From Pseudomonadota bacterium (lineage in GTDB: Bacteria; Pseudomonadota; Gammaproteobacteria; UBA5335), in NCBI GenBank assembly GCA_034189165.1, contig JAXHVN010000024.1, forward strand, positions 19,818-83,817: a DNA stretch of 64,000 nucleotides, written 5' to 3'. The notes beneath the pieces were generated by a model. That model was not told where the DNA came from. It saw only the letters and a program-made list of their open reading frames with translations, and made no database searches. Both the position numbers and the translations under genes were made by a program. The stretch's first letter is position 1, and the number at the start of each line of letters is the position of its first letter. Shown one piece after another: positions 1,396-63,276 of this stretch.

Positions 1396-4182
1396 GTGCT
1401 GGGGCACCAGCGCGGCGGCATGGAGCGAATCTTTGCGACTGCACCCGGCGTCGTTCGGCTGGAGCTCAAACCCGACGGCGTGATCGTGGGTGCCGATGGC
1501 CCCGTCGACAGGCTGTTCGCAGAGGCGCCAGAACAGCTGATCGGTCGGCCGCTGCAGACCTATCTGCCGGCGCTTGATCCGCGGGCGCTGGACGACCGCC
1601 TGGGCCTGCACGGGATGCTGCTCGTGCGGGCCGACGGCGTGCAGCGCGAGATACTCATCGCCGCCTGCCCCACGGCCGCGGGATTCACCTGTTGCCTGCA
1701 GGATGTGTCGGCGACTCGCCGCGAGCTCAGCGCGCTGCGGGCGGTCGACCGTCGCTACCGCGATCTGCTGGCCAACAATCACTACATGCTGTTCTGGCTG
1801 GATCGTTACGGCCGGATCGTGCGCCATCAGCGGGCCAATCCGCCCGTCACCGAATTCACCGACGATATCGTGCGCGGCCTCGACTTCACCCAGATGGTGC
1901 TGCCCGAGGATCGGCCGACGGCGCAACAGGCCCTGCAGCAGGCGCTGCGTGGCGAGCACGTCAATCTGGAGTTGCGGGTCTACGGTCGGGGTGGTGCGCC
2001 ACGTTGGCTGCGTGCGACCAACGTGCCGATCTATGTCGGCGGCGAGATCAGCGGCGCCTTCGGCATCGCCCGGGACATCACGGAGGAACGGGCTGCCGGC
2101 ACGGCGCTCGAGGAGCACCGGCGCCGGCTCGAGGATGCGCAGCGAATGGCGCATCTGGGGCACTGGGAGTATCGCCTGCGCGATCGGGGGGGCATGACGG
2201 TGTCGGCCGAACTGCGGCGCATCCTCGGCTGGCGCGAAGAGGGCGAGGTGAGCTTCCGGCGGCTGCGGCGCAGCGTGCATCCAGCCGATCGCCCCGGCCT
2301 GGCTGCGGCACGCCGGCAGGCGCTGCAGTCGGCGCGACCGCTGCGCTACGAGCACCGCATCGTTCGCGAGGACGGTTCGGAGCGCTGGGTGGCGCAGCGT
2401 GTGGAGCTGCTGCTCGACGGGCAGGGCGAGCGGCAGGCCATCGCGGGCGTGGTGCAGGACATCACCCGGCGCAAGCATGCGGAGAACGAGCTGCGGCTGG
2501 CGGCGAGCGCGCTGGCCAACACCGCCGAGGCCGTCGTCATCAGCGATGCCTATCACCGGATCGTGTCGGTGAACGAGGCGGCGCTGCGCATCACCGGCTA
2601 CGGCCGCGACGAGCTCATTGGCCGCAGCACCGCGATGCTGAGCGCCGATCGGCAGGAGACCGGGCGGATCCAGCAGCTGTGGGACGAGGTGGCCGCCAAC
2701 GACGTGTGGGAGGGCGAGGTTCACGGTCGGCGTCGCACCGGCGAGGTCTACCCCGCGTTGCTGAGCCTGACGGCGCTGCGCAACGAAACCGGGCGGATCA
2801 CGAACTTCGTCACCGTCTACAACGACATCTCCCAGCACAAGTCGCTGGAGGCCAGGCTCGATTACCTGTCGAACTACGATGAGCTGACCGGCCTGTCCAA
2901 CCGGGCGGCTGCCAACGAGCAGCTCGAGCATCTGCTGCGCAATGCCGAGCGTCGGGGCGATGTCGTCGGCGTGCTCGTCATCGACGTGAACGATTTCAAG
3001 AACGTCAACGATTCGCTCGGCCACAGCGTGGGCGATCAGGTCCTGCAGCAGATGGCGCAGCGCTTCCGCGCGACCGTCGACCCCAAGGACACGCTCGCCC
3101 GCCCCGGCGGGGACGAGTTCATCGTGCTCACCACCGGGGTGCGGCGCCCGGCGCAGACGGCATTGCTGGCGCAGCAGCTGCTGGAGTCGCTGGACGAGGC
3201 CTTCGAGGTGGGTGGGCAGCGGCTCTTCCTTGATGCCAGCATCGGTATCAGCTGTTATCCCGGCGACGGTCACGAGGCGACCACACTGTTCCGCAACGCC
3301 GATGCGGCCATGTATCAGGCGAAGCGGCAGAAGGCCGGTAGCTACTGCTTCTTTTCGCCGGAGATGAGTGCGCAGGCCATCTCCAACCTCGTGCTCGCCA
3401 ACGATCTGCGCAGCGGTTTGACGCAGGGCCAGTTCGTGCTGGAGTACCAGCCGATCGTGGACCTGCCCACGCGCCGGGTGACCGGGGCGGAGGCGCTGCT
3501 GCGCTGGGATCATCCCGAGCGGGGCCGCGTGATGCCGGATCAGTTCATCAGTCTCGCCGAGCAAAGCGGCTTCATCATCCCGCTCGGCTACTGGGTCTTG
3601 CGCACGGCCTGCCAGACGCTGCACGACTGGCAGCAGAAGCACCCGCACGAGTTGCGGATCTCGGTCAACCTGTCGCCGACACAGTTCCAGGATCCTTCGC
3701 TGTGCGATCGCCTGCAGGAGATCCTGGACGAGACCGGCGCGGATCCACGCCGACTGGTGATCGAGGTCACGGAAAGCGCCGTCATGACCGGCCCGGCGCG
3801 GGTGGAGCAGACCCTGCGGCGTCTGCACGAAGTCGGCATACGCGTAGCGATCGACGACTTCGGCACGGGCTACTCCTCGCTGAGCCACCTGAAGTATTTC
3901 CCGTTCGACTACCTCAAGATCGATCGCTGTTTCATCGCCGACGTCCCCACGCAGAGCGATGATGTGGCCATCGTCGAGGCCATCATCGCCATGGGCCGGC
4001 GGCTCGGCCTGCAACTGGTGGCCGAGGGCGTGGAGACGGAGGCGCAGCTGACGTTCCTGCAGGCGCGCCGGTGCCAGGAAGGGCAGGGCTATCTGTTCGC
4101 CCGGTCCCTGCCGATCGCCGACTTCGCGGCGCTGCTGCAGGCAGGGGGGCGCATCGCCGCGCCGGATGTGCAGCCGTCATGA
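1396..4182 (+). CDS. Multi-PAS diguanylate cyclase/phosphodiesterase (PAS-PAS-PAS-GGDEF-EAL)
   Basis: 928 aa with repeated PAS/PAC-like segments, the GGDEF motif (RPGGDEFIVL), and EAL domain motifs (EALLRW, DDFGTGYSSL). GTG at 1396; an alternative ATG lies at 1420. Confidence 0.9.
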   Translation: MLGHQRGGMERIFATAPGVVRLELKPDGVIVGADGPVDRLFAEAPEQLIGRPLQTYLPALDPRALDDRLGLHGMLLVRADGVQREILIAACPTAAGFTCCLQDVSATRRELSALRAVDRRYRDLLANNHYMLFWLDRYGRIVRHQRANPPVTEFTDDIVRGLDFTQMVLPEDRPTAQQALQQALRGEHVNLELRVYGRGGAPRWLRATNVPIYVGGEISGAFGIARDITEERAAGTALEEHRRRLEDAQRMAHLGHWEYRLRDRGGMTVSAELRRILGWREEGEVSFRRLRRSVHPADRPGLAAARRQALQSARPLRYEHRIVREDGSERWVAQRVELLLDGQGERQAIAGVVQDITRRKHAENELRLAASALANTAEAVVISDAYHRIVSVNEAALRITGYGRDELIGRSTAMLSADRQETGRIQQLWDEVAANDVWEGEVHGRRRTGEVYPALLSLTALRNETGRITNFVTVYNDISQHKSLEARLDYLSNYDELTGLSNRAAANEQLEHLLRNAERRGDVVGVLVIDVNDFKNVNDSLGHSVGDQVLQQMAQRFRATVDPKDTLARPGGDEFIVLTTGVRRPAQTALLAQQLLESLDEAFEVGGQRLFLDASIGISCYPGDGHEATTLFRNADAAMYQAKRQKAGSYCFFSPEMSAQAISNLVLANDLRSGLTQGQFVLEYQPIVDLPTRRVTGAEALLRWDHPERGRVMPDQFISLAEQSGFIIPLGYWVLRTACQTLHDWQQKHPHELRISVNLSPTQFQDPSLCDRLQEILDETGADPRRLVIEVTESAVMTGPARVEQTLRRLHEVGIRVAIDDFGTGYSSLSHLKYFPFDYLKIDRCFIADVPTQSDDVAIVEAIIAMGRRLGLQLVAEGVETEAQLTFLQARRCQEGQGYLFARSLPIADFAALLQAGGRIAAPDVQPS

Positions 4183-8543: not shown

Positions 8544-10223
8544 GTGATTCCGGCGTGGTGGTTGGCGCTGCTGGGCGGCGTCGTGTTCTGGGCCGGCTGG
8601 CACTGGTATTCGCGTTACCTGGCGGTGCGTGTCTTTCGCCTGGATGCCGCGCTGGCGACCCCGGCGCACCGCTATCGAGACGATCTCGACTTCCTGCCGA
8701 CCCATCGTTTCGTGCTCTGGGGTCATCACTTCACCTCGGTCGCCGGGGCCGCGCCGATCATCGGGCCGGCGATCGCCATCATCTGGGGCTGGCTGCCGGC
8801 CTTTCTGTGGATCCTGTTCGGGACCGTGTTCATCGCCGGCATCCATGACTTCGGCACGCTGTGGGCCTCGGTGCGTCACGAAGGCCGGTCCATGGGCGCG
8901 CTGACGCGCCAGGCGGTCGGCCCGCGCGCCCGCACGCTGTTCCTGTTCATCATCTTCTTCCTGCTGCTGATGGTGAACGCCGTGTTCGCGGTGGCGATCG
9001 CCACCCTGTTCATCAGGTTTCCCGCCGCGGTGCTGCCCTACTGGCTGCAGATCCCCATCGCTATCGCCATCGGCGTGCTGGTGTATCGCCGTGGCGTGGC
9101 CGTGCTGCCGCTGGCACTGCTGGGCCTGGCGCTGTTGCTGGGTCTGATCGGCGTTGGTGTGTGGCTGCCGGTGGCGCTGCCGAGTGCGGGGCTGGGCGTG
9201 CCGGCAAGTGCCTGGTGGGTGCTCCTGATGCTGGCGTACGGCGCGATTGCCTCGCGTCTGCCGGTCTGGCTGCTGCTGCAGCCGCGGGATTTTCTCAACG
9301 CGCACATGCTCTTTGCCGTGCTGGCGCTTTTGTACCTCGGTATCTTCATCAGTGGCGCGACGGTGGCGGCGCCGGCGCTGAACACGCCGCCGGCCGGTAC
9401 GCCCCCCCTGTGGCCGCTGCTGTTCGTCACCGTTGCCTGTGGCGCGATCAGCGGCTTTCACGGCCTGGTCAGCTCCGGCACGTCGTCCAAGCAGCTGGAC
9501 CGGGAGACCGATGCCCGTTTCGTCGGCTATCTCGGCGCCACGGGCGAGGGTCTGCTGGCGCTGGCAGCCCTGCTGGCGACCGCCGCGGGGCTGGGTGGGC
9601 TCGACGCCTGGCAGGGGCACTACGACAGCTGGGCGCAGGTGAGCAGCGGCGGCATCGCAGCCTTCGTCACCGGCGCCGGCAATCTCCTGAGTGCGCTGGG
9701 ATTGCCGCCGGTCGTCGGCACCACGGCGGTGGCCATCATGGTAGTGGCCTTCGCAGCCACCACGCTCGACACCTCGATGCGCCTGCAGCGCTTCATCCTC
9801 GCCGAAATCGGCGCGGAATACCGGTTGCCGGCGCTGCAGAATGCCAATCTCGCCACGGTCGTGACCTTCGTGTCCTGCGCCGCGCTCGCGTTCCTGGCCG
9901 ACCCCGCCAATCCCGGCGGCGGCGGCATGGTGCTCTGGCCGCTGTTCGGCACCACCAACCAGCTCACTGCCGGCCTCTCGTTGCTGGTGCTGACGCTGCT
10001 GCTCCGTCAGCTGGGACGCAATTACCTGCTCACGCTGGTCCCGTTCGTCTTCGTCGCCACGATCACCGCCTGGAGCATGTGCCTGAACGTGCTCGGCTTC
10101 GTGGCGGCCGGCAATGGCCTGCTGGTCGTGATTGGCGTGCTGATCCTCATCCTCAATCTCTGGCTGCTGGCCGAGGGGCTGATCGCCCTGCGACAGCAGC
10201 CGGCGGCGCCGGTGCGGGGGTAG
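8544..10223 (+). CDS. cstA: Carbon starvation protein CstA family transporter
   Basis: 559 aa polytopic protein with a CstA-like N-terminus (FVLWGHHFTSVAGAAPIIGPAIA, AGIHDFG). GTG start preceded by GGAG. Confidence 0.85.
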   Translation: MIPAWWLALLGGVVFWAGWHWYSRYLAVRVFRLDAALATPAHRYRDDLDFLPTHRFVLWGHHFTSVAGAAPIIGPAIAIIWGWLPAFLWILFGTVFIAGIHDFGTLWASVRHEGRSMGALTRQAVGPRARTLFLFIIFFLLLMVNAVFAVAIATLFIRFPAAVLPYWLQIPIAIAIGVLVYRRGVAVLPLALLGLALLLGLIGVGVWLPVALPSAGLGVPASAWWVLLMLAYGAIASRLPVWLLLQPRDFLNAHMLFAVLALLYLGIFISGATVAAPALNTPPAGTPPLWPLLFVTVACGAISGFHGLVSSGTSSKQLDRETDARFVGYLGATGEGLLALAALLATAAGLGGLDAWQGHYDSWAQVSSGGIAAFVTGAGNLLSALGLPPVVGTTAVAIMVVAFAATTLDTSMRLQRFILAEIGAEYRLPALQNANLATVVTFVSCAALAFLADPANPGGGGMVLWPLFGTTNQLTAGLSLLVLTLLLRQLGRNYLLTLVPFVFVATITAWSMCLNVLGFVAAGNGLLVVIGVLILILNLWLLAEGLIALRQQPAAPVRG

Positions 10224-25199: not shown

Positions 25200-26525
25200 T
25201 CAGGCGTCCGGCCGCATGCCGGGCAGCGGTGAGCGTACCAGCTGCAGGTTGTCGAGTTGCTCTGACCCAGCGGGCGTGATGCTGAACTCCGGCGTGATGC
25301 GGGTGCCGATCTCGCGCACGTAGCGATTGCCGGCCGGGTCGTAGAAGAACAGCAGACCGGCGATGCGAAGATCCGGCTCGGCCACGATGTCCACCAGCCG
25401 CTGTTCCTCCCAGATCGCATCTTCCAGCTGCAGCGTCAGCCGCGTGCTGGCTCCCGGCGCCAGCGTCCGGCGGTTCACGCTGAGGCTATCCGGGGCCACC
25501 ATGTCGTAGTCGTCCTCGCGCCGCGCCTCGACGACCTCACCGTTGGTGAAGCGCACGTAGCCGGCCACGAACTGCCCCACGGCCAGCGGCGTCTCGGTGC
25601 CGTTGGCGACGGTGAGATCCAGGGTGAGCGTGCGCCGCGGCAGGTTGAAGCGGGCCTGGTGGATCTCGATGTCGATCGGCGCCTGTGCGCCCGGCAGTGG
25701 CAGCACCGGCGCCTCCACGCGCCCGGTCTGCAGCGGCATGGTGATGGGATAGCGAGCGTTCGCCCACAGCGCGATACCGGCGGTCAGCCCCAGCACCAGC
25801 GCCAGGAACAGCCCGCTGACGATGATGTCCTGCCAGCCGATCAGGCGGCGTTCCGCCTCCGCCTCGCCCAGCTCCTGCACCGCCACATAGCGTCGCATCA
25901 TCACCGGCAGGCGACGGAACCAGTACCCGATCCACAGCAACCCGACCAGCAGCCACACCAGATGCACGCCCGACATGGTGCGCAGCCCGTACTGCTCGAC
26001 CTCGACGCGCTCGCCGTTCAGCAGCACCGCCTCGTTGACGAAATGCGCCGCATCGCCGGTGATCTCGACGAAATGCGCCGGTCCGATCACCGGCCCGGCC
26101 TCCCAGACGTTCACCAGCGGATGCACGTGCCAGATGCCCGGCACACGCGCCTTCAGTTTCACCTCGTAATCGTAGAACTCGCCCCGCCGCAGCGCCGTGG
26201 ACTGCAGCTGACGCATGCCATTGATGGTGGTATCGAGCCGAATGAAGGTCGGCCCCGGCACGCCGATGTTCAGGAATACCCACTCCTCCGGCTTGGCCAC
26301 GTAGTCCGGCCAGTGTTCGGAGACCTTGAAGCGCCCACGCACGGTCACCACCTCGTTTACCGCTACTTGGCGGGGCTCGATCTGCGTGTCGAACCAGTGG
26401 ATGGTACGCATGCGGATGCCCGCCATCTGAGCGATCTCGCCGTGGGCGAAGGTGGCCGGCGGCAACGCCAGCAGCAGGAGCAGCGGGGCGGCGAGCAGGC
26501 ACCGCACGAGGCGTGGACCGGACAT
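25200..26525 (-). CDS. pmoB: Copper membrane monooxygenase subunit B (PmoB/AmoB family)
   Basis: Signal peptide ...PPATFA followed by HGE, then RTIHW, WHVHP, two central TM helices and a C-terminal cupredoxin-like domain (AGLLFFYDPAGNR). I chose the internal ATG at 26525 of ORF 25200..27242, with a GGAGG RBS. Confidence 0.9.
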   Translation of the reverse strand: MSGPRLVRCLLAAPLLLLLALPPATFAHGEIAQMAGIRMRTIHWFDTQIEPRQVAVNEVVTVRGRFKVSEHWPDYVAKPEEWVFLNIGVPGPTFIRLDTTINGMRQLQSTALRRGEFYDYEVKLKARVPGIWHVHPLVNVWEAGPVIGPAHFVEITGDAAHFVNEAVLLNGERVEVEQYGLRTMSGVHLVWLLVGLLWIGYWFRRLPVMMRRYVAVQELGEAEAERRLIGWQDIIVSGLFLALVLGLTAGIALWANARYPITMPLQTGRVEAPVLPLPGAQAPIDIEIHQARFNLPRRTLTLDLTVANGTETPLAVGQFVAGYVRFTNGEVVEARREDDYDMVAPDSLSVNRRTLAPGASTRLTLQLEDAIWEEQRLVDIVAEPDLRIAGLLFFYDPAGNRYVREIGTRITPEFSITPAGSEQLDNLQLVRSPLPGMRPDA

Positions 26526-26536
26526 TGGCGGCCTCC

Positions 26537-27325
26537 TCAGAGCAGCTTGGTCATGAAGGCCGGTCGGGCGCTCTTCGAGCCGATCCACACGAAGACGTAG
26601 TACACGAGGATCGCGAAGAATCCGGCGACGAAGGCGGTGACCGGCGCGACATGGCCACCGAAGGTGCGCAGGGTGCCGTATTCGATGATGCGCACATATT
26701 CGGGCATCGCCGTGCGGATGTACTGGAAGCCCATGTAGTCGGCCAGCGTGATCACCGATTCGCCCACCTGCACCGGCATGTGCATGGGCGCCACGGTCGG
26801 CCAGTTCATGGGATAGAACAGCAGCCCGAAGAAGAATCCGCCGACCAGGCCGGTGATGGCGAAGCTGCGCGTGATCAGCAGCGTCGCGTCGAGGAACACC
26901 GCGGCGCCGATCCACACCTCCGGCATCACCCAGTTCATCGGAAAGCCGGTGAACAGGTGGAAGTTCACGTAGCGGCTGATCATCTGCGAGAGCAGGTAGC
27001 CCACGGCGACCGCCGTGGCCGCCACCGGCAGCTTGAAGTACTTCCAGAAGGCGTAGGTGAGCACCGCCGGCAGCGTCAGCAGTAGCAGCGGCGTCAGCAG
27101 CGGCCACCAGCGGCGATCGCGCCAGTCCTGCCAGTAGCTCCAATCGCCGATCGTGAGCGCCCCGAGGAACACGGCGGCGCCGCCGATGAGGATCGCGATC
27201 AGCGGGAAGAACATCAGGTCGATGTTCTTCCATGCCTCCCACTGCTCGCGCGCCGTGTGCAGCGCCGGCCTGGCCGGCGGCGGCGCGGCGTCTGCCTGCG
27301 GATTGAGTTCCAGAGCCATCATCAC
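26537..27325 (-). CDS. pmoA: Copper membrane monooxygenase subunit A (PmoA/AmoA family)
   Basis: 262 aa, collinear with PmoA (GDWSYWQDWRDRRWW, FYPMNWP, PEYVRIIEYGTLRTFG). GGAGGTG RBS. Confidence 0.9.
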   Translation of the reverse strand: MMMALELNPQADAAPPPARPALHTAREQWEAWKNIDLMFFPLIAILIGGAAVFLGALTIGDWSYWQDWRDRRWWPLLTPLLLLTLPAVLTYAFWKYFKLPVAATAVAVGYLLSQMISRYVNFHLFTGFPMNWVMPEVWIGAAVFLDATLLITRSFAITGLVGGFFFGLLFYPMNWPTVAPMHMPVQVGESVITLADYMGFQYIRTAMPEYVRIIEYGTLRTFGGHVAPVTAFVAGFFAILVYYVFVWIGSKSARPAFMTKLL

Positions 27326-27398: not shown

Positions 27399-28223
27399 CT
27401 AGTGCTCGGCGGCCAGGCGTTCGATTTCCTCGTAGGAGACGACGTGCATCAGCTCGCGCATGCGCTGCAGGCACTGCACGACGAAGCCGATCAGGAACAC
27501 GAGGAAGAAGCCGGCCAGCACGAAGAACCAGTGCACCGGCGCGGCGAACAGTTCTTCCGCATAGAAAAAGGTGTGCGCCCATTCGTTGAAGGCCACCACC
27601 GGGCCGACCATCATGAAGCCGAGGATGGCGACCGAGAACGGCACCGAGATGCGGCTGGTGAAGATCGGCAGGCGCGTGTGCACCCAGATCCACGCCAGGA
27701 TCAGCGCGCCCCAGGCGACGGGAATGCCGAGGTAGAACAGGAAGATGTGCGTCGGCGTGAAGTCGGTATCGCGCACCACCACCTGATGCCAGGCGGCATC
27801 CGCCTCGGTCAGCAGCCCCAGCGCGCTGACGATGGCGATCGCGGCGACGGTGAGGATGCCGAACATCGCGTAGAACCGGCGCAGTTCATCGTGCGGCGAG
27901 AGCGACATGATGTCGCGGTCCCGCGTCAGCCACAGCGCCAGCGCGCCGAGTCCGCCGAGCACCGGGATCGCGATGATCTCGGTGTAGAAGATCGACATCC
28001 AGTAGGTCTGGAACTCGTCGGAAAACGAGTCCATGCCGACGGACCAGGAAAAGGCGTGCTGGTACCACTTGACGGCCGTCAGCGCCGCGAACACCAGGGC
28101 AGTGATGCCCAGCGCCCAGCCCCAGGGGACGCGGGGCGGCCCCTCGGTCGGTGGGGGCGCATCGGGCCGCCGTGCGAGTGGACGGCTCCGGCTGGTACCG
28201 ATGTCCTGCGTGATGCTGCTCAT
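27399..28223 (-). CDS. pmoC: Copper membrane monooxygenase subunit C (PmoC/AmoC family)
   Basis: 274 aa from the ATG at 28223 (AGGAGAG RBS), with VRDTDFTPTH and NEWAHTFFYAEELFAAPVHW motifs. Confidence 0.9.
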   Translation of the reverse strand: MSSITQDIGTSRSRPLARRPDAPPPTEGPPRVPWGWALGITALVFAALTAVKWYQHAFSWSVGMDSFSDEFQTYWMSIFYTEIIAIPVLGGLGALALWLTRDRDIMSLSPHDELRRFYAMFGILTVAAIAIVSALGLLTEADAAWHQVVVRDTDFTPTHIFLFYLGIPVAWGALILAWIWVHTRLPIFTSRISVPFSVAILGFMMVGPVVAFNEWAHTFFYAEELFAAPVHWFFVLAGFFLVFLIGFVVQCLQRMRELMHVVSYEEIERLAAEH

Positions 28224-28281
28224 TGTCTGTCTCTCCTGCGCTCGCAGGGCGAGCGCGCCGGTGGTGTTCGAACGACCCATG

Positions 28282-28310
28282 ACATATCGACTGACTGAAC
28301 GGTCGTTTAA
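28282..28310 (-). promoter_or_regulatory. Candidate promoter of pmoCAB (TTAAAC-17-ATATGT), sharing a sequence block with the orphan pmoC promoter
   Basis: The minus strand reads ATTAAACGACCGTTCAGTCAGTCGATATGT, compared with ATTGAACGTTCGTTCAGGCCGATCTATCTA at 12379..12410. An alternative TTGACA-17-TAGCCA lies about 30 nt further upstream. Confidence 0.35.
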
Positions 28311-28404
28311 TTCATGGCTAGTAGCGGCCCGGTCTGATGTCAAGGGACACGACGGCGCAGCGCGAGCTCGGTAGCATGAGTGCGGGCGTTCGGGAGCCGG
28401 CGGT

Positions 28405-28872
28405 ATGGGCAACAAGCAGATCGTGGTGGTGGCGCACGCGCCGTCACCGAACACGCGGCGGATGCTGGACGCCCTCCTGCGCGGGGCGGCCCTTCCGGAC
28501 ATCGATGGCATCGAGGTGTGTCACGTGGCGCCGCTGGAGGCAGGGCCGGAGGACGTGCGCGAGGCGGATGCCGTGATCTTCGGCACGCCGGAGAACCTCG
28601 GTTACATGAGCGGCGCCCTGAAGGATTTCTTCGATCGCAGCTACAACGCGCTGCTCGATTGCACGCAGGGCAAGCCCTACGCGCTCTACGTGCGGGCCGG
28701 CAAGGATGGCACCGGCACGCTGCGCGGCGTGGAGACGATCCTTACCGGGCTGCGCTGGCGCGCCGTGCAGGCGCCGCTGGTGTGCCGGGGCGAGTTCGAC
28801 GAGCGCTTCATCGCCCAGTGCGAGGAGCTGGGCACGACCGTGGCCGCAGGGCTGGAAGCCGGTGTCTTCTAG
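28405..28872 (+). CDS. Flavodoxin-like NAD(P)H-dependent FMN reductase family protein
   Basis: 155 aa with a flavodoxin-fold pattern (IVVVAHAPSPNT...ADAVIFGTPENLGYMSG). Divergent from pmoC. Confidence 0.7.
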   Translation: MGNKQIVVVAHAPSPNTRRMLDALLRGAALPDIDGIEVCHVAPLEAGPEDVREADAVIFGTPENLGYMSGALKDFFDRSYNALLDCTQGKPYALYVRAGKDGTGTLRGVETILTGLRWRAVQAPLVCRGEFDERFIAQCEELGTTVAAGLEAGVF

Positions 28873-28897: not shown

Positions 28898-32758
<3,861 letters not shown>

Positions 32759-39104: not shown

Positions 39105-39788
39105 ATGGCGAGAAGAACCAAGGACGAGGCGGAGGCAACGCGGGAACGGATTCTCGAGGCCGCCGAGCGGGTATTCCTGCAGCGCGGCGTGGCGCGCACG
39201 ACGCTGGAGAACATCGCCTGCACCGCGGGCGTCACACGCGGCGCCATCTACTGGCATTTCCACAACAAGCTGGAAGTGTTCGAGGCGGTGCTCGATCGTG
39301 TGCAGCAGCCGATGTTCGCCTCGCTGATCGGTCTGCCGGACGAGCAGGAGGCCAGCCCCCTGGAGGCACTGCACCGGCTCTGTGCCTGCGCCTTCCGTCT
39401 GCTGACCACGGATGCCCGCTATCAGCGTGTCTACACCATCTTCTATCACCGCTGTGAGTTCGCGCCGGAATTGGCCGATTCGCTGCGCCAGCGGGCGGAG
39501 GCCGTGGAGCAGATCCTGCGCGCGCTGGAGCGCTACTTCGCCCGGCCGCACAACCGCGCCCGCCTGCGTCCCGGCCTGACACCGGCGCTGGCAGCGCGGA
39601 TGGTGCACGTGTACGTGTCCGGCCTGCGCTACGACTGGCTGCGTGCGCCGGCCAGCTTCGACCTGCCGGCGCACTGGGAGGCACTGCTCGATGCCTTCTT
39701 CGCCGGCCTGGTCACGCCGGCAGTGGCGCAGCCGGTGCCGGACGCGGCCGCCCCGGCCGAGCCCGAACGCCGCGCCGCCCGGCGCTAG
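39105..39788 (+). CDS. TetR/AcrR family transcriptional regulator
   Basis: N-terminal HTH ([40 protein letters not shown]). Confidence 0.85.
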
Positions 39789-42700
39789 CGGCCGCCCTCG
39801 CCGCCGGGAGCGGCCGAGCGATCCTCGGCCTCGGCCGCCCGGCGCTTGCCGCCGAACCGTTCGCTCGCCGCCTCGATCAGGCGATAGAACAGCGGCACGA
39901 AGATGATCGCCAGCAGCGTCGCCCCCAGCATGCCGCCGATCACGCCGGTGCCGATGGAGTGCCGGCTGCCGGCGCCGGCGCCGGAGGCGAGCGCCAGCGG
40001 CACCACGCCCATGATGAACGCCAGCGACGTCATGATGATCGGCCTGAATCGCAGCCGCGCCGCCTCCACCGCCGCGTCCCAGGCGTTCTTGCCGGACTGG
40101 CGGCTGAGCACGGCGAACTCGACGATCAGGATCGCGTTCTTCGCCGCCAGTCCGATCAGCACCAGCAGGCCCACCTGGAAGTACAGGTCCACGTTCAGCC
40201 CGCGCAGCCAGATCGCGAGAATGGCACCGAACACGGCGAAGGGCACTGCCGTCACCACCGCGAGCGGCAGCGCCCAGCGCTCGTACTGGGCGGCGAGGAT
40301 CAGGAACACCATGACGATGCCGAAGACGAACGCCAGCTGGCCGCTGCCGCTGGCCTCGATCTCCTGATAGGCGGCGCCGGTCCAGCCGAGCTGGTAGTCC
40401 TCGTCCAGCGTCTGCGCAGCGACCGCCTGCATGGCCGCGATCGCCTGACCGGAGCTGTAGCCGGGTGCGGGATCCCCCATGATCTTGGCCGCCGGAAACA
40501 CGTTGAAGCGGTCGATCAGGTCCGGCCCGCGGGCGCGCTCCGCGCTCACCAGCGAGGCGACGGGGATCATCTGGCCGCCGGCCGAGCGGACGAAGACATC
40601 ACGCAGATCGCCGGCTTCCTCGCGGAATTCCGCCTCCGACTGCACGTTGACCTGATAGTTGCGGCCGAACAGGGTGAAGTCGTTGACGTACAGCGAGCCG
40701 AAGGTGCTCTGCAGCGTCTCGTAGACCATGTCGATCGGTACGCCCAGCGCCCGCGCCTTCTCCCGGTTGACCACCAGGCGATAGTTCGGCACCTGGGTGC
40801 TCAGCGTGCTGCGCACCCGGGTGAGCTCGGGCCGGCCGTTCGCCGCCTGCACCAGCTTGCCGGCGGTGGCCTCGATCTCGGCGGCCGGCGCCGCGGCGCG
40901 GCTCTGCAGGTAGGCCTCGAAGCCGCCGGTGGTGGAAATGCCGGTGATCGGCGGCGGGTTGAACGCGAGCACGTTCGCCTCGGGAATGCCGGCGCCGATG
41001 CCCATCACCGCGTCGGCGTAGCTCTGCGCGTCCTGCCCCGGCGCGGTGCGCTCGTGCCAGTCGGTCAGCGTGATGAACGAGGCGCCGGCATAGCTCTTCA
41101 GCGCGCCGGCCAGCAGATCGTAGCCGGCGAAGCTGGTCATGCCGCGCACCATGTCGTCCTCGACGACCTGTTCGGTGAACTCCTGCACGGCGGCCTGGGT
41201 GCGATTGAGCGAGGCGGCGGCCGGCAGCTGGGTCACGGCGATCACATAGCCTTGATCCTCCGGCGGCACCAGGCCGGTCGGCACCCGTGCGAACAGCGCC
41301 ACGGTCAGCGCGATCAGGCCGGCAAACAGCACCGTACCCAGCACCGCACGGCCGAGCAGGAAGCGCACGCTGGCGAGATAGCCGCCGGTCAGCGCGTCGA
41401 AGGCGCGGTTGAACCAGCGGAATGGCGCCCAGGGCTCGCCGTGCGTCGGCTTGAGGATCAGGGCGCACAGCGCCGGCGTGAGGGTGAGGGCGACGATGCC
41501 GGAGATGACCACCGAGACGGCGATGGTGATGGCGAACTGCCGATACATCACGCCGGTGAGTCCACCGAGAAAGCCGACCGGCACGAACACCGCGACCAGC
41601 ACCAGCACGATCGCGATCACCGGCCCTGTGACCTCCTGCATCGCCTTGATCGCCGCCTCGCGTGGTCCGAGGCCTTGCTCGCGCATGATGCGCTCGACGT
41701 TCTCCAGCACCACGATGGCGTCGTCCACCACGATGCCGATCGCCAGGATCATGCCGAACAGCGTCAGCAGGTTGATCGAGAAGCCCAGCAGATACATGCC
41801 GGCGAAGGTGCCGACCAGCGAGACCGGGATCGCCAGCAGCGGGATCAGCGTCGCGCGTACGTTCTGCAGGAACAGGAAGACCACCACCACGACCAGCACC
41901 AGCGCCTCGATGAAGGTGTGCACCACCTCCTCGATGGACACTTCCACGAAGCGGGTGGTCGTGAACGGGATGGTGTATTCCAGCCCGGGCGGGAAGCGCG
42001 CCGCCAGCGCCTGCATCTGTGTCCGGACGGCCTGGGTCGTGTCCAGGGCGTTGGCGCCGGGCTGCAGGTAGAGCGCGATCGGCACGGCCGGCTCGCCGTT
42101 GAAGGTGCCGGAGAACTGGTAGGTCTGGGCGCCGAGCTCGACGCGGGCGATGTCCTTCAGGCGCAGCGCCGAGCCGTCCGGATTGGCGCGCACGATGATC
42201 TCGCGGAACTGCTCGACGTCCGAGAAGCGGCCTTCGGTGGTCACGGTGTAGGTGAAGGCGACCTGCTCACCCATCGGCGGCGCGCCGATGCTGCCGGCGG
42301 CGGCCTGCGTGTTCTGCTCGCGCAGCACGGCGGCGATGTCGCTCGGGGTGAGGCCGTACTGCGCGAGCTTGTCCGGCTGCAGCCAGACGCGCATGGAATA
42401 GTTGGCGGCGCCGAACAGCTGCGCATCGCCCACACCGGGAATGCGCTTGAGCTGGTCGATGATGCTGACCAGCGCGTAGTTGCTCATGAACAGCCGGTCG
42501 TAGCGCCCGTCGGGCGAGGTCAGCGTCACCAGCGCCAGGATGGAGCTGGAGCGCTTCTGCACCGTCACGCCCTGCTGGCGCACCTGGTCCGGTACGCGCG
42601 GCAGGGCCGCCTGCACCCGGTTGTTGACATCGATGGTGGCCTGGTCGGGGTCGCTGCCGATGTCGAAGAACACCGACATGCGCATGGTGCCGGCATCCGA

Positions 42701-42949
42701 ACTGGTCGAGCGCATGTAGATCATGTTCTCGACGCCGTTGACCTGCTGCTCGATCGGCGCGGCGACCGTCTCGGAGATGGTTTGTGCGCTGGCGCCCGGG
42801 TAGCGCGCGTCCACCACCACTTCGGGTGGCACGATCTCCGGGTACTGCTCGATCGGCAGTGTGGTCATCGCGCCGAGGCCGGCCAGCACGATCACGATCG
42901 AGAGCACCGTGGCGAACACGGGCCGGTCGATGAAGAACCGGGAGATCAT
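39785..42949 (-). CDS. Multidrug efflux RND transporter permease (AcrB/MexB-like, HAE1)
   Basis: 1054 aa. [24 protein letters not shown] start and 12-TM RND architecture. Confidence 0.9.
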
Positions 42950-44725: not shown

Positions 44726-45430
44726 TCAGCCGCACTTGGAGTCGCCGCAGTTCAGGCAGGTCAGGCAGTTGTCCATCACCACCACGGCCTTGGTGTGGCA
44801 CTTGCCGCAGAGCGTGGCGCTGGCCGGAAAGGCGCTGGCCTCGCCGCTGCTCTGGCTGCTGCGGGCCTCGTACTCGGCGCGTTTCTCCTCGATCAGCTTG
44901 AGCTGGCGCTCGTCGAGTTCGGCGTCGGGCAGCATGCCGATGAAGCGCAGATGCCGTTCGATGACATCGCCGATCTCCGCCACCAGCGAGGGCATGTACT
45001 TGCCACCCGGCCGCCAGTAGCCGCCGCGCGGGTCGAACACGGCCTTGAGCTCCTCCACCAGGAAGGTGATGTCGCCGCCCTTGCGGAACACGGCGGAGAC
45101 GATGCGGGTGAGGGCGACGATCCACTGAAAATGGTCCATCGCCTTGGAGTTGATGAAGATTTCGAACGGGCGCCGGTGCTCGTGCTCGGTGCCCTCGTTC
45201 AACACGATGTCGTTGATCGTGATGTACATGGCGTGGTCGGCCATCGGCGGCTTCATCTTGTAGGTGGTGCCGATCAGCATGTCCGGCCGCTCCAGCTTCT
45301 CGTGCATCTGCACGACGTTGCCGGCGGCGAGGGGCGCGGCGGCCTGCGCCGGTGTGGGCGTCTGGGCGGCGGGCTCTTCCTTGGCCTTGACCTTGTAATC
45401 GGTGATGCGCTTGTCGATGCGTACGGGCAT
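44726..45430 (-). CDS. nrdJb: Class II (adenosylcobalamin-dependent) ribonucleotide reductase, C-terminal polypeptide NrdJb
   Basis: Collinear with the C-terminal part of NrdJ and ends in a Cys-rich tail (CGKCHTKAVVVMDNCLTCLNCGDSKCG). ATG at 45430 with a [10 protein letters not shown]; an alternative GTG lies at 45448. Confidence 0.8.
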   Translation of the reverse strand: MPVRIDKRITDYKVKAKEEPAAQTPTPAQAAAPLAAGNVVQMHEKLERPDMLIGTTYKMKPPMADHAMYITINDIVLNEGTEHEHRRPFEIFINSKAMDHFQWIVALTRIVSAVFRKGGDITFLVEELKAVFDPRGGYWRPGGKYMPSLVAEIGDVIERHLRFIGMLPDAELDERQLKLIEEKRAEYEARSSQSSGEASAFPASATLCGKCHTKAVVVMDNCLTCLNCGDSKCG

Positions 45431-45489
45431 GTCCGGTTCTCCCGGCACCGCCGGCGTGGCGGTGCCTCTCGTGGCTGGCGGCGGCGCTA

Positions 45490-47640
45490 TCAGAAGCGGC
45501 CGTAGTAGCCCTCTTTCAGGGCGTCGTAGAGGTTCGCGGCGGTATGCGTCTCGCCGTCGTACTCGATCTGGGCATCGCCAGACACCTCGACCTGCTCGCC
45601 ATCCTCGAGCATGAAGACATACGTGGTGTTCTTCAGGTCCTGCTCCTTGACCAGCACGCCCTGGAACGCCTCGGGATTGAAGCGGAAGGTGGTGCAGCCC
45701 TTCAGACCCTGCCCATGGGCATAGAGGTAGATGTCCTTGAAGTTCTCGAAGGGGTAGTCGGTCGGCACGTTGGCGGTCTTGGAGATGGAGGAGTCCACCC
45801 AGGTCTGCGCCGCCGCCTGGATGTCCACATGCTGGTTCGGCGTGATGTCGTCGGCAGTGACGAAGTACGCCGGCAGCTGCTCCTCGGGATCCTCCGAAAA
45901 GGGCATGGCCCGCGCGTTCACCAAGGCCCGGTAGGCGAGCAGTTCATAGGAGAAGACGTCCACCTTCTCCTTGCTCTTGCGGCCCTCGCGGATGACGTTG
46001 CGCGCATAGTGGTGGGCGAAGCTCGGCTCGATGCCGTTGCTGGCATTGTTGGCCAGCGAGAGCGAAATGGTGCCGGTCGGGGCGATCGAGGTGTGATGCG
46101 TGAAGCGCCCGCCGCGCTCGGCCAGCGCCTCGACCAGTGCCGGGCGCACCTCGCCGACCCGCTGCATGTAGCGGCTGTAGCGGGCCCACAGCACGCGTCC
46201 GGGCAGCCGGTCGCCCGGCTGGTGGCCGTCGGCTGCCATCTCCGGACGCTTGCGCAGCATTTCGGCGGTGACCTCGAACGTCTCCTCCATGATCGGCGCT
46301 GCGCCCTTTTCCTCGGCCAGCTCCAGTGCCTGCTCCCAGCCCACGATCGCCATCTCGCGCGCCACCTCGTCGGTGAAGGCGACGGCCTCGGCGCTGCCGT
46401 AGGCCTTGCGCAGCATCGTCAGGGTGGAGCCCAGCCCCAGAAAGCCCATGCCGTGGCGCCGCTTGTGGGTGATCTCGTGGCGCTGCTGGCCGAGCGGCAG
46501 GCCGTTGATCTCGACCACGTTGTCCAGCATGCGGGTGAAGATGGCGACCACCGCGCGGTACTCGTCCCAGTCGAAGCGCGCCTTGTCGGTGAACGGTTCG
46601 CGCACGAAGCAGGTCAGGTTCACCGAGCCGAGCAGGCAGGAGCCGTAGGGCGGCAGCGGCTGCTCGCCGCAGGGATTGGTGGCGCGGATGTCCTCGCAGA
46701 ACCAGTTGTTGTTCTGCTCGTTCACCTTGTCGATCAGGATGAAGCCGGGTTCGGCGAAATCGTAGGTGGAACTCATGATCAGGTCCCACAGCCGCCGCGC
46801 CTTGATGGTCTTGTAGACCCTGCACGCCACCAGCCCGTCCGGCCGCACGATGTAGCCCTGATGCGTCGGCCACTCGCGCCAGATGATGTCGTCGGCCTGC
46901 TCCACGTCGAGCCCATCGGCCTCGGCTTCGGCGCGGGAGACGGGAAAGGCGAGCGGCCAGGTGCCGTTGGCCTTTACCGCGTTGATGAACTCGTCGGTGA
47001 TCAGCAGGGAGAGGTTGAACTGGCGCAGCCGGCCGTTCTCCCGCTTGGCCCGGATGAAGTCCAGCACGTCCGGATGGCCGACATCGAAGGTGCCCATCTG
47101 GGCACCGCGCCGGCCGCCGGCGGAGGAGACCGTGAAGCACATCTTGTCGTAGATATCCATGAACGAGAGCGGCCCTGAGGTATAGGCGCCGGCTCCCGAC
47201 ACGTAGGCGCCGCGCGGGCGCAGGGTGGAGAACTCATAGCCGATGCCGCAGCCGGCCTTCAGCGTCAGCCCGGCCTCGTGCACCTTCTCCAGGATGTCAT
47301 TCATCGAATCCTCGATGGTGCCCGAGACGGTGCAGTTGATCGTGCTGGTGGCCGGCTTGTGCGCCTGCGCGCCGGCATTGGACGTGATGCGCCCGGCGGG
47401 GATCGCGCCGCGCCGCAGCGCCCACAGGAAGCGCTCGTGCCAGTGCTCGCGCACGGCCGGTGCCTCGACCTCGGCCAGCGCCCGAGCCACGCGCCGGAAC
47501 GTGTGATCGACGGTCTGGTCGATCACCTCTCCGTTCTTCGCCTTCAGCCGGTACTTCTTGTCCCAGATGTCTTCGGAGGCGGGCTGTAGCGGGATCTCGG
47601 TCATGGCGCTCGGAAATAGCGTGAGCGGTGCACTGCTCAT
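45490..47640 (-). CDS. nrdJa: Class II ribonucleotide reductase, large N-terminal polypeptide NrdJa
   Basis: 716 aa with RNR barrel motifs (ATNPCGEQPLPPYGSCLLGS). AAGGAG RBS. Confidence 0.9.
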   Translation of the reverse strand: MSSAPLTLFPSAMTEIPLQPASEDIWDKKYRLKAKNGEVIDQTVDHTFRRVARALAEVEAPAVREHWHERFLWALRRGAIPAGRITSNAGAQAHKPATSTINCTVSGTIEDSMNDILEKVHEAGLTLKAGCGIGYEFSTLRPRGAYVSGAGAYTSGPLSFMDIYDKMCFTVSSAGGRRGAQMGTFDVGHPDVLDFIRAKRENGRLRQFNLSLLITDEFINAVKANGTWPLAFPVSRAEAEADGLDVEQADDIIWREWPTHQGYIVRPDGLVACRVYKTIKARRLWDLIMSSTYDFAEPGFILIDKVNEQNNNWFCEDIRATNPCGEQPLPPYGSCLLGSVNLTCFVREPFTDKARFDWDEYRAVVAIFTRMLDNVVEINGLPLGQQRHEITHKRRHGMGFLGLGSTLTMLRKAYGSAEAVAFTDEVAREMAIVGWEQALELAEEKGAAPIMEETFEVTAEMLRKRPEMAADGHQPGDRLPGRVLWARYSRYMQRVGEVRPALVEALAERGGRFTHHTSIAPTGTISLSLANNASNGIEPSFAHHYARNVIREGRKSKEKVDVFSYELLAYRALVNARAMPFSEDPEEQLPAYFVTADDITPNQHVDIQAAAQTWVDSSISKTANVPTDYPFENFKDIYLYAHGQGLKGCTTFRFNPEAFQGVLVKEQDLKNTTYVFMLEDGEQVEVSGDAQIEYDGETHTAANLYDALKEGYYGRF

Positions 47641-47716
47641 GGCTGGCTGGCTCCTTACTTTGAAGTTTGCGCCCCTTCGGCCGAGCTGTCAGGCGCTGGA
47701 CGGTGTGTGGCGGCGG

Positions 47717-47732
47717 CTACTACATGTGGTGC
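47717..47732. promoter_or_regulatory. NrdR-box-like palindrome (proximal)
   Basis: CTACTACATGTGGTGC compared with the NrdR consensus acaCwAtATaTwGtgt. It lies just downstream of a candidate promoter TTGACT-17-TAGGTT (47769..47741, minus strand). Confidence 0.45.
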
Positions 47733-47840
47733 GTGGCTAGAACCTATTCCGCCCGTGGCGGGAAGTCAAAACCTTTTTGGTTTTCTTATAAATCAATGGC
47801 TTAAAATAAAATGCAGCAGATTCAAGCGGATAGCCGATAC

Positions 47841-47856
47841 CCACTAGATATGGTGG
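47841..47856. promoter_or_regulatory. NrdR-box-like palindrome (distal)
   Basis: CCACTAGATATGGTGG matches the NrdR consensus at 12 of 16 positions. Confidence 0.45.
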
Positions 47857-48001
47857 CAGGCCGGATCGCACCGGGAGGCGGGTCCAGTGACGCGCCGGCC
47901 CGGCGCGCCCGTGGCCGCGCCGGCAGGGCGGTGGAATAATCCGCGGCGAACGGCGCGCCCGCGTGCCGCCAGAACGAATGGATCGATTGAGGAACAGCGT
48001 T

Positions 48002-61590: not shown

Positions 61591-62028
61591 TCAGCCTTCC
61601 AGCCAGAACGTCACCGGCCCATGGTTGGTGAGGGCGACCTCCATTTCGGCGCCGAAGCGGCCGGTCTGCACCGGCACCTGCCAGCCGCAGGCGTGCCCGA
61701 CCAGTGCCGCGAACAGCGGCTCGGCCAGCGCTGGCGGCGCCGCTGGCGCGAAGGAGGGCCGGTTGCCCCGGTCGGTGGCGGCGGCCAGCGTGAACTGCGG
61801 GACCAGCAGCAGTCCGCCGCCCGTGTCGAGCAGCGAACGGTTCATGCGACCGGCGTCATCGGCGAAGACCCGGTAGCGGACGATCCGTTCGGCCAGCCGG
61901 GCGGCGCTGGCGGCGCTGTCCTGCCGGCGCACGCCGATCAGTGCCAGCAGCCCGCTGCCGATGTGGCCGACGCGTTCACCGGCAACGCATACCTCTGCCT
62001 GCCGCACCCGCTGGAGTAGCGCGATCAT
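61591..62028 (-). CDS. dtd: D-aminoacyl-tRNA deacylase
   Basis: MIALLQRV...[10 protein letters not shown]...[11 protein letters not shown]...GNRPSF...[11 protein letters not shown] chose the internal ATG at 62028. Confidence 0.9.
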
Positions 62029-62067
62029 GGGTCCGATCCTGTCCGTGATGCCATCGCGAGTGCCCTG

Positions 62068-62085
62068 CGTAAGCATTTTCCTACA
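62068..62085 (+). promoter_or_regulatory. GacA/UvrY-box-like upstream activating sequence
   Basis: cGTAAGcattttCcTACA matches the consensus TGTAAG-N6-CTTACA at 10 of 12 defined positions. It is centred about 70 nt upstream of the inferred sRNA 5' end, and GATAAC at 62134..62139 is a possible -10. Confidence 0.5.
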
Positions 62086-62146
62086 CGAAACCGATCGGAA
62101 CACCGACTGGTGTCCGTCGGCCCGGATCGGCAGGATAACCGCCGTG

Positions 62147-62466
62147 CCGACAAGGACAACGCGACGAGGGATCGACGCACGCAACGGAATGCGCAGGGAA
62201 GATCCGGCGGCCAGGAGGGACGCCGCGCTCGCAGGAAGCAATAACGGACACGGCACGGACAGGGATAGCAAGGACGCGGCGCAGGAAGCGCTTGCAGGGA
62301 AGCATCATCATCGCGATCACTGGCAGCCAGGACGGCACAACAACAGCAGGCCAGATGCGGGCAGGACGCCACAGGACGTAGAAGCGATGCGCATACGAGG
62401 ACTCAGAACGCCTCAGGCCTGAATCAGGCCGACGCGGCCCCGGGTGGTTTCCACCCGGGGTTTTTT
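62147..62466 (+). ncRNA. Candidate CsrB/RsmY/RsmZ-class CsrA(RsmA)-sequestering sRNA (5' end approximate)
   Basis: A region of about 320 nt with no credible ORF and 17 GGA motifs, mostly CAGGA, CAGGGA, ACGGA or AAGGA. Several sit in small hairpin loops, for example GCGC-AGGAA-GCGC at about 62280. It ends in a strand-specific intrinsic terminator. Confidence 0.65.
62438..62466 (+). terminator. Rho-independent terminator (plus strand)
   Basis: CCCCGGGTGG-ttt-CCACCCGGGG followed by TTTTTT. The U-run exists only on the plus-strand transcript. Confidence 0.8.
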
Positions 62467-62487
62467 GTGCGCTGCCCGCGCCGCCGT

Positions 62488-63276
62488 TCAGAGCATGACC
62501 TCCCCGCGCAGATAGGGCACGCAATGCCCGGCGATGCGCACGCGGCCCTCGACCAGCCGGCAGGCGAACCAGCCGCCACGGGCGGACAGCTGGCGCGCGC
62601 TGAAGGCGGTACCTCCAAGCTGTTCCTGCCAGTAGGGCGCCAGCATGCAGTGCGAGGAGCCGGTGGCAGGATCTTCCGGCACGCCGAACTGCGGAGCGAA
62701 ATACCGGGCGACGTAGTCCGCCGTCTCCCCCGGTGCCGTGGCGATCACGCCGAACGCGCCCAGCCGGGCCAGCATCGTCATATCCGGGGCGAGTGCCCGT
62801 ACGGCCGCCTCGTCTGCCAGGCGCACCAGATAGTTCGCCGCCCGTCGCACGTCCAGCAGGGGGGTGCCGAGGGCCCTCGTCAGCTCCGCCGGTGCGTGGC
62901 AGGGCCTCGGCACCTGACAGGGAAAGTCCAGTTCCAGCCGGCCGTCCGGCAGGGCCGCCACGGCCAGTTCGCCGCTGCGGGTCTGGAAGCGGATCGGCGA
63001 GACGGCACCGGTCTGCGCGAAGAGCACGGCGGCGGTGGCCAGCGTGGCGTGGCCGCAGAGCTCGACCTCGCAGCTCGGCGTGAACCAGCGCAGTTCGCGG
63101 CGGCCGGGACGCTCGACCAGAAACGCCGTCTCGGCAAGATTGTTCTCGGCGGCGATTGCTTGTAGCACCGTATCGGCCAGCCATTCCGGCAGGCGCACGA
63201 CCGCCGCGGGGTTGCCGCTGAACGGGCCGTCGCCGAAGGCTGCGAGCTGGTCGATCGGGTAGCGCCCGGGAGCCAT
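62488..63276 (-). CDS. PhzF family isomerase-like protein
   Basis: 262 aa. FSGNPAAVV...AETAFL...[15 protein letters not shown]...TGSSHC is the PhzF-fold pattern. I chose the internal ATG at 63276 of ORF 62488..63858. Confidence 0.8.

Follow-up and report, generated by a model that had tools for sequence, protein, structure and literature searches.

The Gac/BarA-UvrY pathway has the Csr/Rsm sponge RNAs as its output. These RNAs determine how active CsrA is, and CsrA in turn controls carbon metabolism, motility, the formation of biofilms and secondary metabolism. The sequences of these RNAs drift fast, and models built from enterobacteria, vibrios and pseudomonads miss them elsewhere; sponge RNAs are therefore unannotated in most environmental genomes. 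Here, we describe a candidate sponge RNA gene in a 64-kb stretch of DNA (64,000 nt of contig JAXHVN010000024.1, 69% GC, hereafter “the window”) from an uncultured gammaproteobacterium. The candidate occupies the gap between dtd, which encodes D-aminoacyl-tRNA deacylase, and a gene of the PhzF family. We consider it likely that this gap contains a free-standing gene on the plus strand for a small RNA (sRNA) of ~320 nt, and that the RNA is a decoy for CsrA/RsmA. The predicted RNA (62146–62466, +) has an inferred 5′ end, a 3′ end at a run of T residues, and 17 GGA motifs. An original prediction, made from the sequence alone, had assigned a ~460-bp gap (459 nt as measured, 62029–62487) to the CsrB/Rsm class; motif density, strand asymmetry, a terminator, an upstream box and conservation all support that assignment.

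Sponge RNAs of this class vary in size and motif load. CsrB is ~360 nt long with at least 16 motifs, and the V. fischeri RNAs CsrB1 and CsrB2 are 416–420 nt long with 21 motifs (PMC1488887). P. brassicacearum RsmY has about 7 GGA motifs (PMC7911923). The repeat unit of CsrB is CAGGA(U/A/C)G, and the high-affinity CsrA ligand recovered by SELEX has a short stem whose loop, in many cases six nucleotides long, presents GGA (PMC7652899). Upstream, the P. aeruginosa GacA sites lie at −75 for rsmY and at −196 for rsmZ (PMC4950607), and the P. fluorescens rsmY upstream activating sequence is TGTAAGCATTCTCTTACA (PMC4353343). Kulkarni et al. 2006 proposed five sequence criteria for sRNAs that regulate CsrA (PMC1488887). 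All five features are found at this locus: an intergenic location (the 459-nt gap), a high density of AGGA/ARGGA (relative to the 64-kb window), a rho-independent 3′ terminator (on the plus strand only), GGA motifs in loops or free regions (with moderate statistical support), and a conserved 18-bp upstream site of the UvrY/GacA type.

What sets the gap apart from the DNA around it? First, it is dense in GGA. There are 19 GGA trinucleotides, two of them at 62124 and 62133 and the other 17, exactly the number predicted, at 62154–62399, a stretch in which TCC occurs twice. A density of 19 per 300 nt is the maximum of the window, where the mean is 4.1 (standard deviation 2.4) and the next-best value is 13; the window is the only background for these densities. 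The longer motif A(R)GGA reaches 15 per 240 nt, where the window averages 1.0 and the runner-up has 8. Its 16 starts compare with 4.1 ± 2.0 when the region is shuffled with its dinucleotides preserved (maximum 11 in 2000), so the motif count is non-random and the A(R)GGA excess, about fourfold, is more than composition alone would give. The base composition of 62141–62420 is 28% A, 29% C, 35% G and 7.5% T, and the AT skew of the gap is +0.55 to +0.58, with the plus strand A-rich relative to T. The median spacing of the GGA motifs is 13 nt. Their contexts are mostly CAGGA(A/C)G, CAGGGA, AAGGA or ACGGA, with five exact CAGGA(U/A/C)G elements, and the one context that had been singled out by its full sequence, ACAGGACGT, is present at 62371–62379.

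Second, the gap carries a GacA/UvrY-type upstream activating sequence, CGTAAGCATTTTCCTACA (62068–62085). It agrees with the consensus TGTAAG-N6-CTTACA at 10 of 12 positions and is the sole match of at least 10/12 in the window, at the place where such a box had been proposed. It is also identical to the rsmY upstream activating sequence of P. fluorescens at 15 of 18 positions, including the spacer bases GCATT. Third, an intrinsic terminator with a 10–12 bp GC stem, a UUU loop and a T6 tract lies at 62436–62466 (+). Its 10-nt arms (62438–62447 and 62451–62460) are 100% complementary, the T6 tract is at 62461–62466, and the terminator is called solely on the plus strand, in full agreement with the perfect 10-bp stem originally described.

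Fourth, the gap is conserved. Six related metagenomic contigs of three sequence types, recovered from a protein collection, all share the layout lgt / phzF / ~460-nt gap / dtd / hisB. One of them (L092) is the window’s own organism, with 99.7% identity; for the others, Dtd identity to the window is 92% (L084 and L085), 87% (L082) and 81% (L081 and L087). When metagenomes were scanned with the invariant 25-mer GCGCAGGAAGCGCNNGCAGGGAAGC, one match came up, to the same organism at 99.7% identity, which added no diversity. The gap can be aligned end to end across the relatives. From the box to the T-run, the window is 93–95% identical to L081, L082 and L087, while the flanking dtd and phzF genes are 70–80% identical at third codon positions and 91–94% identical at first and second positions. 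The proportion of invariant columns is 57% in the 39 nt next to dtd, 83% in the box (15 of 18 columns), 82% in the spacer between the box and the inferred start, 92% in the RNA body (62146–62435), 97% in the terminator (32 of 33 columns), which is the most conserved segment, and 39% in the 19 nt past the T-run. As a control, the neighboring lgt-phzF spacer is 73% identical in L081 and 48% in L082. Fourteen of the 17 GGA motifs are invariant, and two A/G changes at the R position preserve A(R)GGA. Conservation in relatives had been suggested as a check on the prediction, and the layout, the GGA pattern and the terminator are all kept. The box and the T-run mark the exact limits of the conserved block, as would be expected of a promoter followed by an RNA gene. 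This pattern of purifying selection points to a real, selectively constrained and previously unannotated RNA gene within the gap.

Two other explanations of the gap can be weighed against this conservation. It is extremely improbable that the gap is a functionless spacer with a chance oddity of composition. Although there are three sequence types only, which leaves few substitutions from which to argue constraint, the excess of motifs persists against dinucleotide shuffles, and both the lgt-phzF spacer and third codon positions in the genes on either side are less conserved than the block. There is likewise almost no chance that the gap is a gene for a protein or a decaying pseudogene. The DNA is GC-rich, and open reading frames (ORFs) do run through the gap, at 61961–62422 (+, 153 amino acids), 62025–62372 (−, 115 amino acids) and 62081–63184 (−), but none has a Pfam match. 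Moreover, L081 and L087 carry a 1-nt insertion that creates a TAA codon inside the 92%-invariant block and breaks any frame; hence, there is no conserved reading frame. The plus-strand ORF starts antisense inside dtd, as had been stated, although it is not the only ORF through the region as had also been claimed, given the two on the minus strand. On none of the related contigs did the gene callers place a gene in the gap. Protein coding was rejected as an explanation on the basis of the frame-breaking insertion and the lack of Pfam matches.

Where would transcription begin? The center of the box is at 62076/62077, which is about −70 to −75 relative to a start near 62146–62151. Around such a start, the proportion of invariant columns steps from 82% to 92%. 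From the distance to the box and the conservation, we infer a transcription start near 62146–62151, within about ±10 nt. Such a start would place a weak candidate −10 element, GATAAC (62134–62139, +), at about −8 to −17. Between the box and the inferred start, a second palindrome, GGAACACC-GACT-GGTGTCC (62097–62115), can be read from the sequence. In L082, both of its arms are altered together (ACACC/GGTGT to ACGCC/GGCGT), and the symmetry is kept. This palindrome may be the site of a second regulator; alternatively, were the start further upstream than inferred, the RNA could include it as a 5′ hairpin.

The predicted structure of the RNA is that of a chain of short hairpins. By partition function, 12 of the 17 GGA motifs have a probability of being unpaired, P(unpaired), above 0.5, a count seen in 3 of 150 shuffles, and P(unpaired) is 0.54 for G residues inside GGA versus 0.26 for other G residues. 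The consensus fold has six hairpins with GGA in loops of 5–6 nt on short stems, given as 2–4 bp, and the original expectation that GGA would fall in loops agrees with these results. The stem-loop CGCA-ACGGAA-UGCG (62180–62193, +) has a 6-nt loop with a P(unpaired) of 0.97 and is found in the minimum free energy, maximum expected accuracy and RNAalifold consensus folds. In GGCGGCC-AGGAG-GGACGCC (62206–62224, +), AGGA is in the loop, and its GGA at 62214 has a P(unpaired) of 0.96. The hairpin GCGC-AGGAA-GCGC (62279–62291, +), which had been given as an example of loop presentation, has a P(unpaired) of 0.95 for its GGA and is invariant in the relatives. The short stem-loop GC-AGGGAA-GC (62294–62303, +) has a 6-nt ARGGAA loop with a P(unpaired) of 0.93, and its 9-mer GCAGGGAAG recurs at 62193–62201. 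The RNAalifold consensus also contains GCC-AGGAC-GGC (62326–62336, +), which belongs to the direct-repeat family D1 together with 62357–62373, and GGC-AGGAC-GCC (62360–62370, +), with a P(unpaired) of 0.69. These six hairpins match the shape of the SELEX-derived CsrA ligand (PMC7652899). The RNA contains duplicated hairpin modules of 9–17 nt, which suggests that it may have grown by hairpin duplication. An origin from tandem or long repeats was considered and rejected, because Tandem Repeats Finder detects no array in the gap, just the modules of 9–17 nt.

How does the RNA relate to the described families? At the gathering threshold, Rfam 15 assigns no family, either in the window or at five related loci. 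A sensitive Rfam search of 701 nt (61900–62600) with permissive filters and E ≤ 10 gave a partial alignment of RsmY (RF00195) to 62270–62357, with 17.4 bits versus a gathering score of 57 and an E value of 0.07. This sub-threshold match is driven by an identical hairpin, GCGCAGGAAGCGC. The CsrB, CsrC, RsmX and RsmZ/PrrB models gave nothing at E ≤ 10 in the same interval, and the other matches in E-value mode are terminator look-alikes. Hence, no Csr/Rsm family is found at threshold, while the expectation that the RNA would be lineage-specific and unannotated was borne out. Of the originally suggested checks that can be made computationally, this family assignment is the only one whose result was not favorable.

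A close comparison by architecture is CsrB, as found in E. coli and other Enterobacteriaceae, with CsrB1 and CsrB2 in V. fischeri. The window RNA, at ~320 nt with 17 GGA motifs, is similar to these in size class and motif load, in using the CsrB repeat unit (five exact copies), in showing GGA in the loops of short hairpins, and in being a free-standing intergenic gene with an intrinsic terminator and a UvrY/GacA-type box. It differs in having no detectable sequence or covariance-model similarity to CsrB, in its dtd/phzF context and 69% GC host, and in a terminator loop without GGA. Pseudomonas RsmY is another close comparison: the box is 15/18 identical, the inferred distance from box to start is ~70–75 bp versus −75, and the hairpin GCGCAGGAAGCGC is the same as in the Rfam RsmY consensus. 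However, the RsmY model has 121 positions and the window RNA exceeds it ~2.5 times in length, with 17 GGA motifs rather than about 7. RsmZ/PrrB and RsmX belong to the same functional class and share the TGTAAG-N6-CTTACA box consensus and GGA motifs in loops, but they are much shorter, with 6–10 GGA motifs, and their covariance models do not match the window RNA at E ≤ 10; for rsmZ, the box is also at −196, in contrast to ~−75 here. The window RNA is CsrB-like in size and motif load, with a box, and an inferred distance to it, like those of rsmY. Very probably, it is a lineage-specific CsrA sponge of the Csr/Rsm class, known in kind and new in sequence.

Several results weigh against the identification of this RNA as a CsrA decoy. 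First, the promoter is poor. The −10 element of the original prediction is present as written, but it is weak; a scan for the sigma-70 consensus called no promoter at the locus, and the position reads GATAGC in L081, L082 and L087. Second, the support from folding is uneven. The mean unpaired probability at GGA is modestly above that of shuffles, being matched by 16 of 150, and the stability of the whole plus-strand fold does not significantly exceed that of shuffles (z −1.58), whereas the complement strand gives a z of −2.74, with 0 of 100 shuffles as stable. The unremarkable stability of the plus-strand fold fits an RNA predicted to consist of many short hairpins. There are no compensatory pairs (0) among the relatives, which comprise three very similar sequence types; because these are too similar for covariation, the RNA structure rests on thermodynamic prediction. 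Third, by inspection of the variable columns, substitutions in GGA are not rarer than elsewhere in the RNA. Fourth, the RNA is outside every curated Rfam sequence family. Fifth, a tblastn search of the window for CsrA/RsmA gave only matches with E > 4, and csrA, gacA and gacS are not among its annotated ORFs. That annotation covers 25 ORFs compared with NCBIfam, which is about half of the 55 called and comprises the larger ones, and the absence of csrA, gacA and gacS from the window is uninformative for the whole genome.

Some of these results bear on whether the RNA, if real, acts through CsrA at all. A conserved plus-strand sRNA could regulate by base pairing, or it could sequester another RNA-binding protein, one with a preference for purine-rich RNA. 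The uniform conservation along the RNA, which by inspection is not focused on GGA, would fit such a role, as would the failure to find CsrA in the window and the lack of an Rfam Csr/Rsm match. Nonetheless, what is repeated is A(R)GGA in particular, at about four times the level that composition gives; the motifs are predicted to be shown in the loop geometry that CsrA prefers; and a box of this type marks the genes of CsrA antagonists in Gammaproteobacteria. An RNA that is poor in U and has no long unique single-stranded segments is also ill-suited to regulation by base pairing. We give a CsrA-independent function a small chance of being right.

The stability of the complement strand raises the question of which strand is functional. 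Both flanking genes are on the minus strand: dtd (61591–62028; Pfam Tyr_Deacylase PF02580, 161 bits) is the divergent neighbor of the RNA, and the PhzF-family gene (62488–63276; PF02567, 171 bits) is the convergent one. The dtd start codon is separated from the box by just 39 poorly conserved nt (62029–62067), and the hairpin 3′ of phzF (in the region 62436–62487) has no U-tract on the minus strand; for these reasons, dtd may be transcribed by read-through from phzF, antisense over the whole RNA gene. The gap could then be a long, pyrimidine-rich intercistronic leader with UCC repeats in a phzF-dtd-hisB transcript, with the plus-strand signals being incidental. The unclear dtd promoter, the possible read-through and the minus-strand fold would all be consistent with such a leader. 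It is nevertheless very improbable, because T6 follows the hairpin on the plus strand only, the terminator is the most conserved segment of all, the conservation spans the box to the T-run while the dtd-proximal 39 nt are just 57% invariant, and three unrelated dtd loci, described below, have GGA-rich RNAs with a box and a terminator in the same divergent orientation.

If the RNA is a CsrA decoy, its action can be outlined from the known pathway. A phosphorylated response regulator of the GacA/UvrY type would bind the palindromic box at 62068–62085 and activate the weak promoter ~50 nt downstream of it. Transcription would begin near 62146–62151 and end at the hairpin and T6 tract at 62436–62466. 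The resulting U-poor transcript would present 17 GGA motifs ~13 nt apart, many of them in loops on stems of 2–4 bp or in single-stranded stretches. With two sites per CsrA dimer, each RNA could hold roughly 6–9 dimers. CsrA would thereby be titrated off mRNA leaders, and CsrA-mediated repression or activation would be relieved, by the mechanism reviewed in PMC7652899.

Two other genes in the window were compared with genes of Csr biology. A 928-amino-acid protein with PAS, GGDEF and EAL domains (1396–4182, +) has its best match to DibA, with 599 bits, below the cut-off; it resembles CsrD only weakly, at 116 bits versus a cut-off of 663, and is therefore not a CsrD protein. A CstA-like transporter is encoded at 8544–10223 (+); in E. 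coli, cstA is under CsrA regulation (PMC7652899).

Are there similar RNAs next to dtd in other bacteria? A scan of a genome collection with Dtd yielded 80 loci with at most 65% Dtd identity, and none of these has a sequence homologue of the window RNA. At 3 of the 80, a short GGA-rich RNA is predicted divergent from dtd: in Aquisalimonas sp. (L026, 5539–5720, −), in a metagenome-assembled genome (MAG) of Ectothiorhodospiraceae (L004, 1808–1972, −) and in a Pseudomonadota MAG (L056, 5801–5908, −). Like the window RNA, these predicted Rsm-like RNAs have a GacA-type box (10–11/12), GGA motifs and a terminator. They differ in being 108–182 nt long with 4–8 GGA motifs, and in having GGA within the terminator loop. 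None of the three has an Rfam Csr/Rsm match, E-value mode included, and nhmmer detects no similarity between them and the window RNA. In addition, the nearest Dtd relatives outside the window’s lineage (L088 and L089–L091) do not have the gap. With 3 of 80 loci, no nhmmer similarity and gapless nearest relatives, common descent is unproven, and a common dtd-linked RNA family is possible.

A more specific proposal can be built on these loci, although we regard it as unlikely. The window RNA could be an expanded, CsrB-sized member of an undescribed family of dtd-linked, GacA-driven Rsm RNAs in deep-branching Gammaproteobacteria (the window’s lineage, Aquisalimonas/Ectothiorhodospiraceae and others). 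It would have grown at one orthologous locus, from ~110–180 nt with 4–8 GGA motifs to ~320 nt with 17, by duplication of hairpin modules, and it might modulate dtd and his genes in cis. A cis effect is conceivable because the RNA gene is antisense to the possible phzF-dtd-his read-through transcript. If this were true, Gac-dependent firing of the RNA gene could alter dtd and his expression via transcriptional interference or antisense pairing. Within the literature searched, no paper linked dtd with Rsm or Csr RNAs.

The wider neighborhood consists of hisB and hisH beyond dtd, and lgt, in divergent orientation, beyond phzF. The PhzF-family product has a 100% identical counterpart in a Gammaproteobacteria MAG, where the protein is named PhzF family. 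Elsewhere in the window, an AmoC-like gene (27399–28511, −; 214 bits versus a cut-off of 319) and an adjacent AmoA-like gene (26537–27325, −; 264 bits versus 290) form a divergent copper membrane monooxygenase cluster, below the cut-offs of the ammonia and methane equivalogs; the ORF at the expected place of the B subunit (25537–26502) matched no NCBIfam model. A B12-dependent ribonucleotide reductase (44726–47640, −) is apparently split into a 716-amino-acid NrdJ ORF (45490–47640) and a separate 240-amino-acid ORF (44726–45448) whose match to the PRK08665 model is confined to the C-terminal end. The 322-nt gap upstream of NrdJ (47641–47962) has no cobalamin riboswitch or other Rfam match at the gathering threshold. 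There are also two efflux pumps of the resistance-nodulation-division type, one CusA/CzcA-like (29262–32399, −; 1466 bits) and one AcrB-like (39785–42949, −), the latter with a divergent AcrR-like TetR repressor (39105–39788, +).

What does the finding mean for the Csr/Rsm system? Our understanding of that system is unchanged, and the discovery of a further sponge RNA is not surprising; its value lies in the annotation gap that it addresses, and its interest is for specialists. The combination of a GacA box, a high A(R)GGA density and a terminator finds such genes where Rfam fails. The locus is a well-bounded candidate in an uncultured, high-GC gammaproteobacterium, and the small alignment of its relatives could seed a new RNA family.

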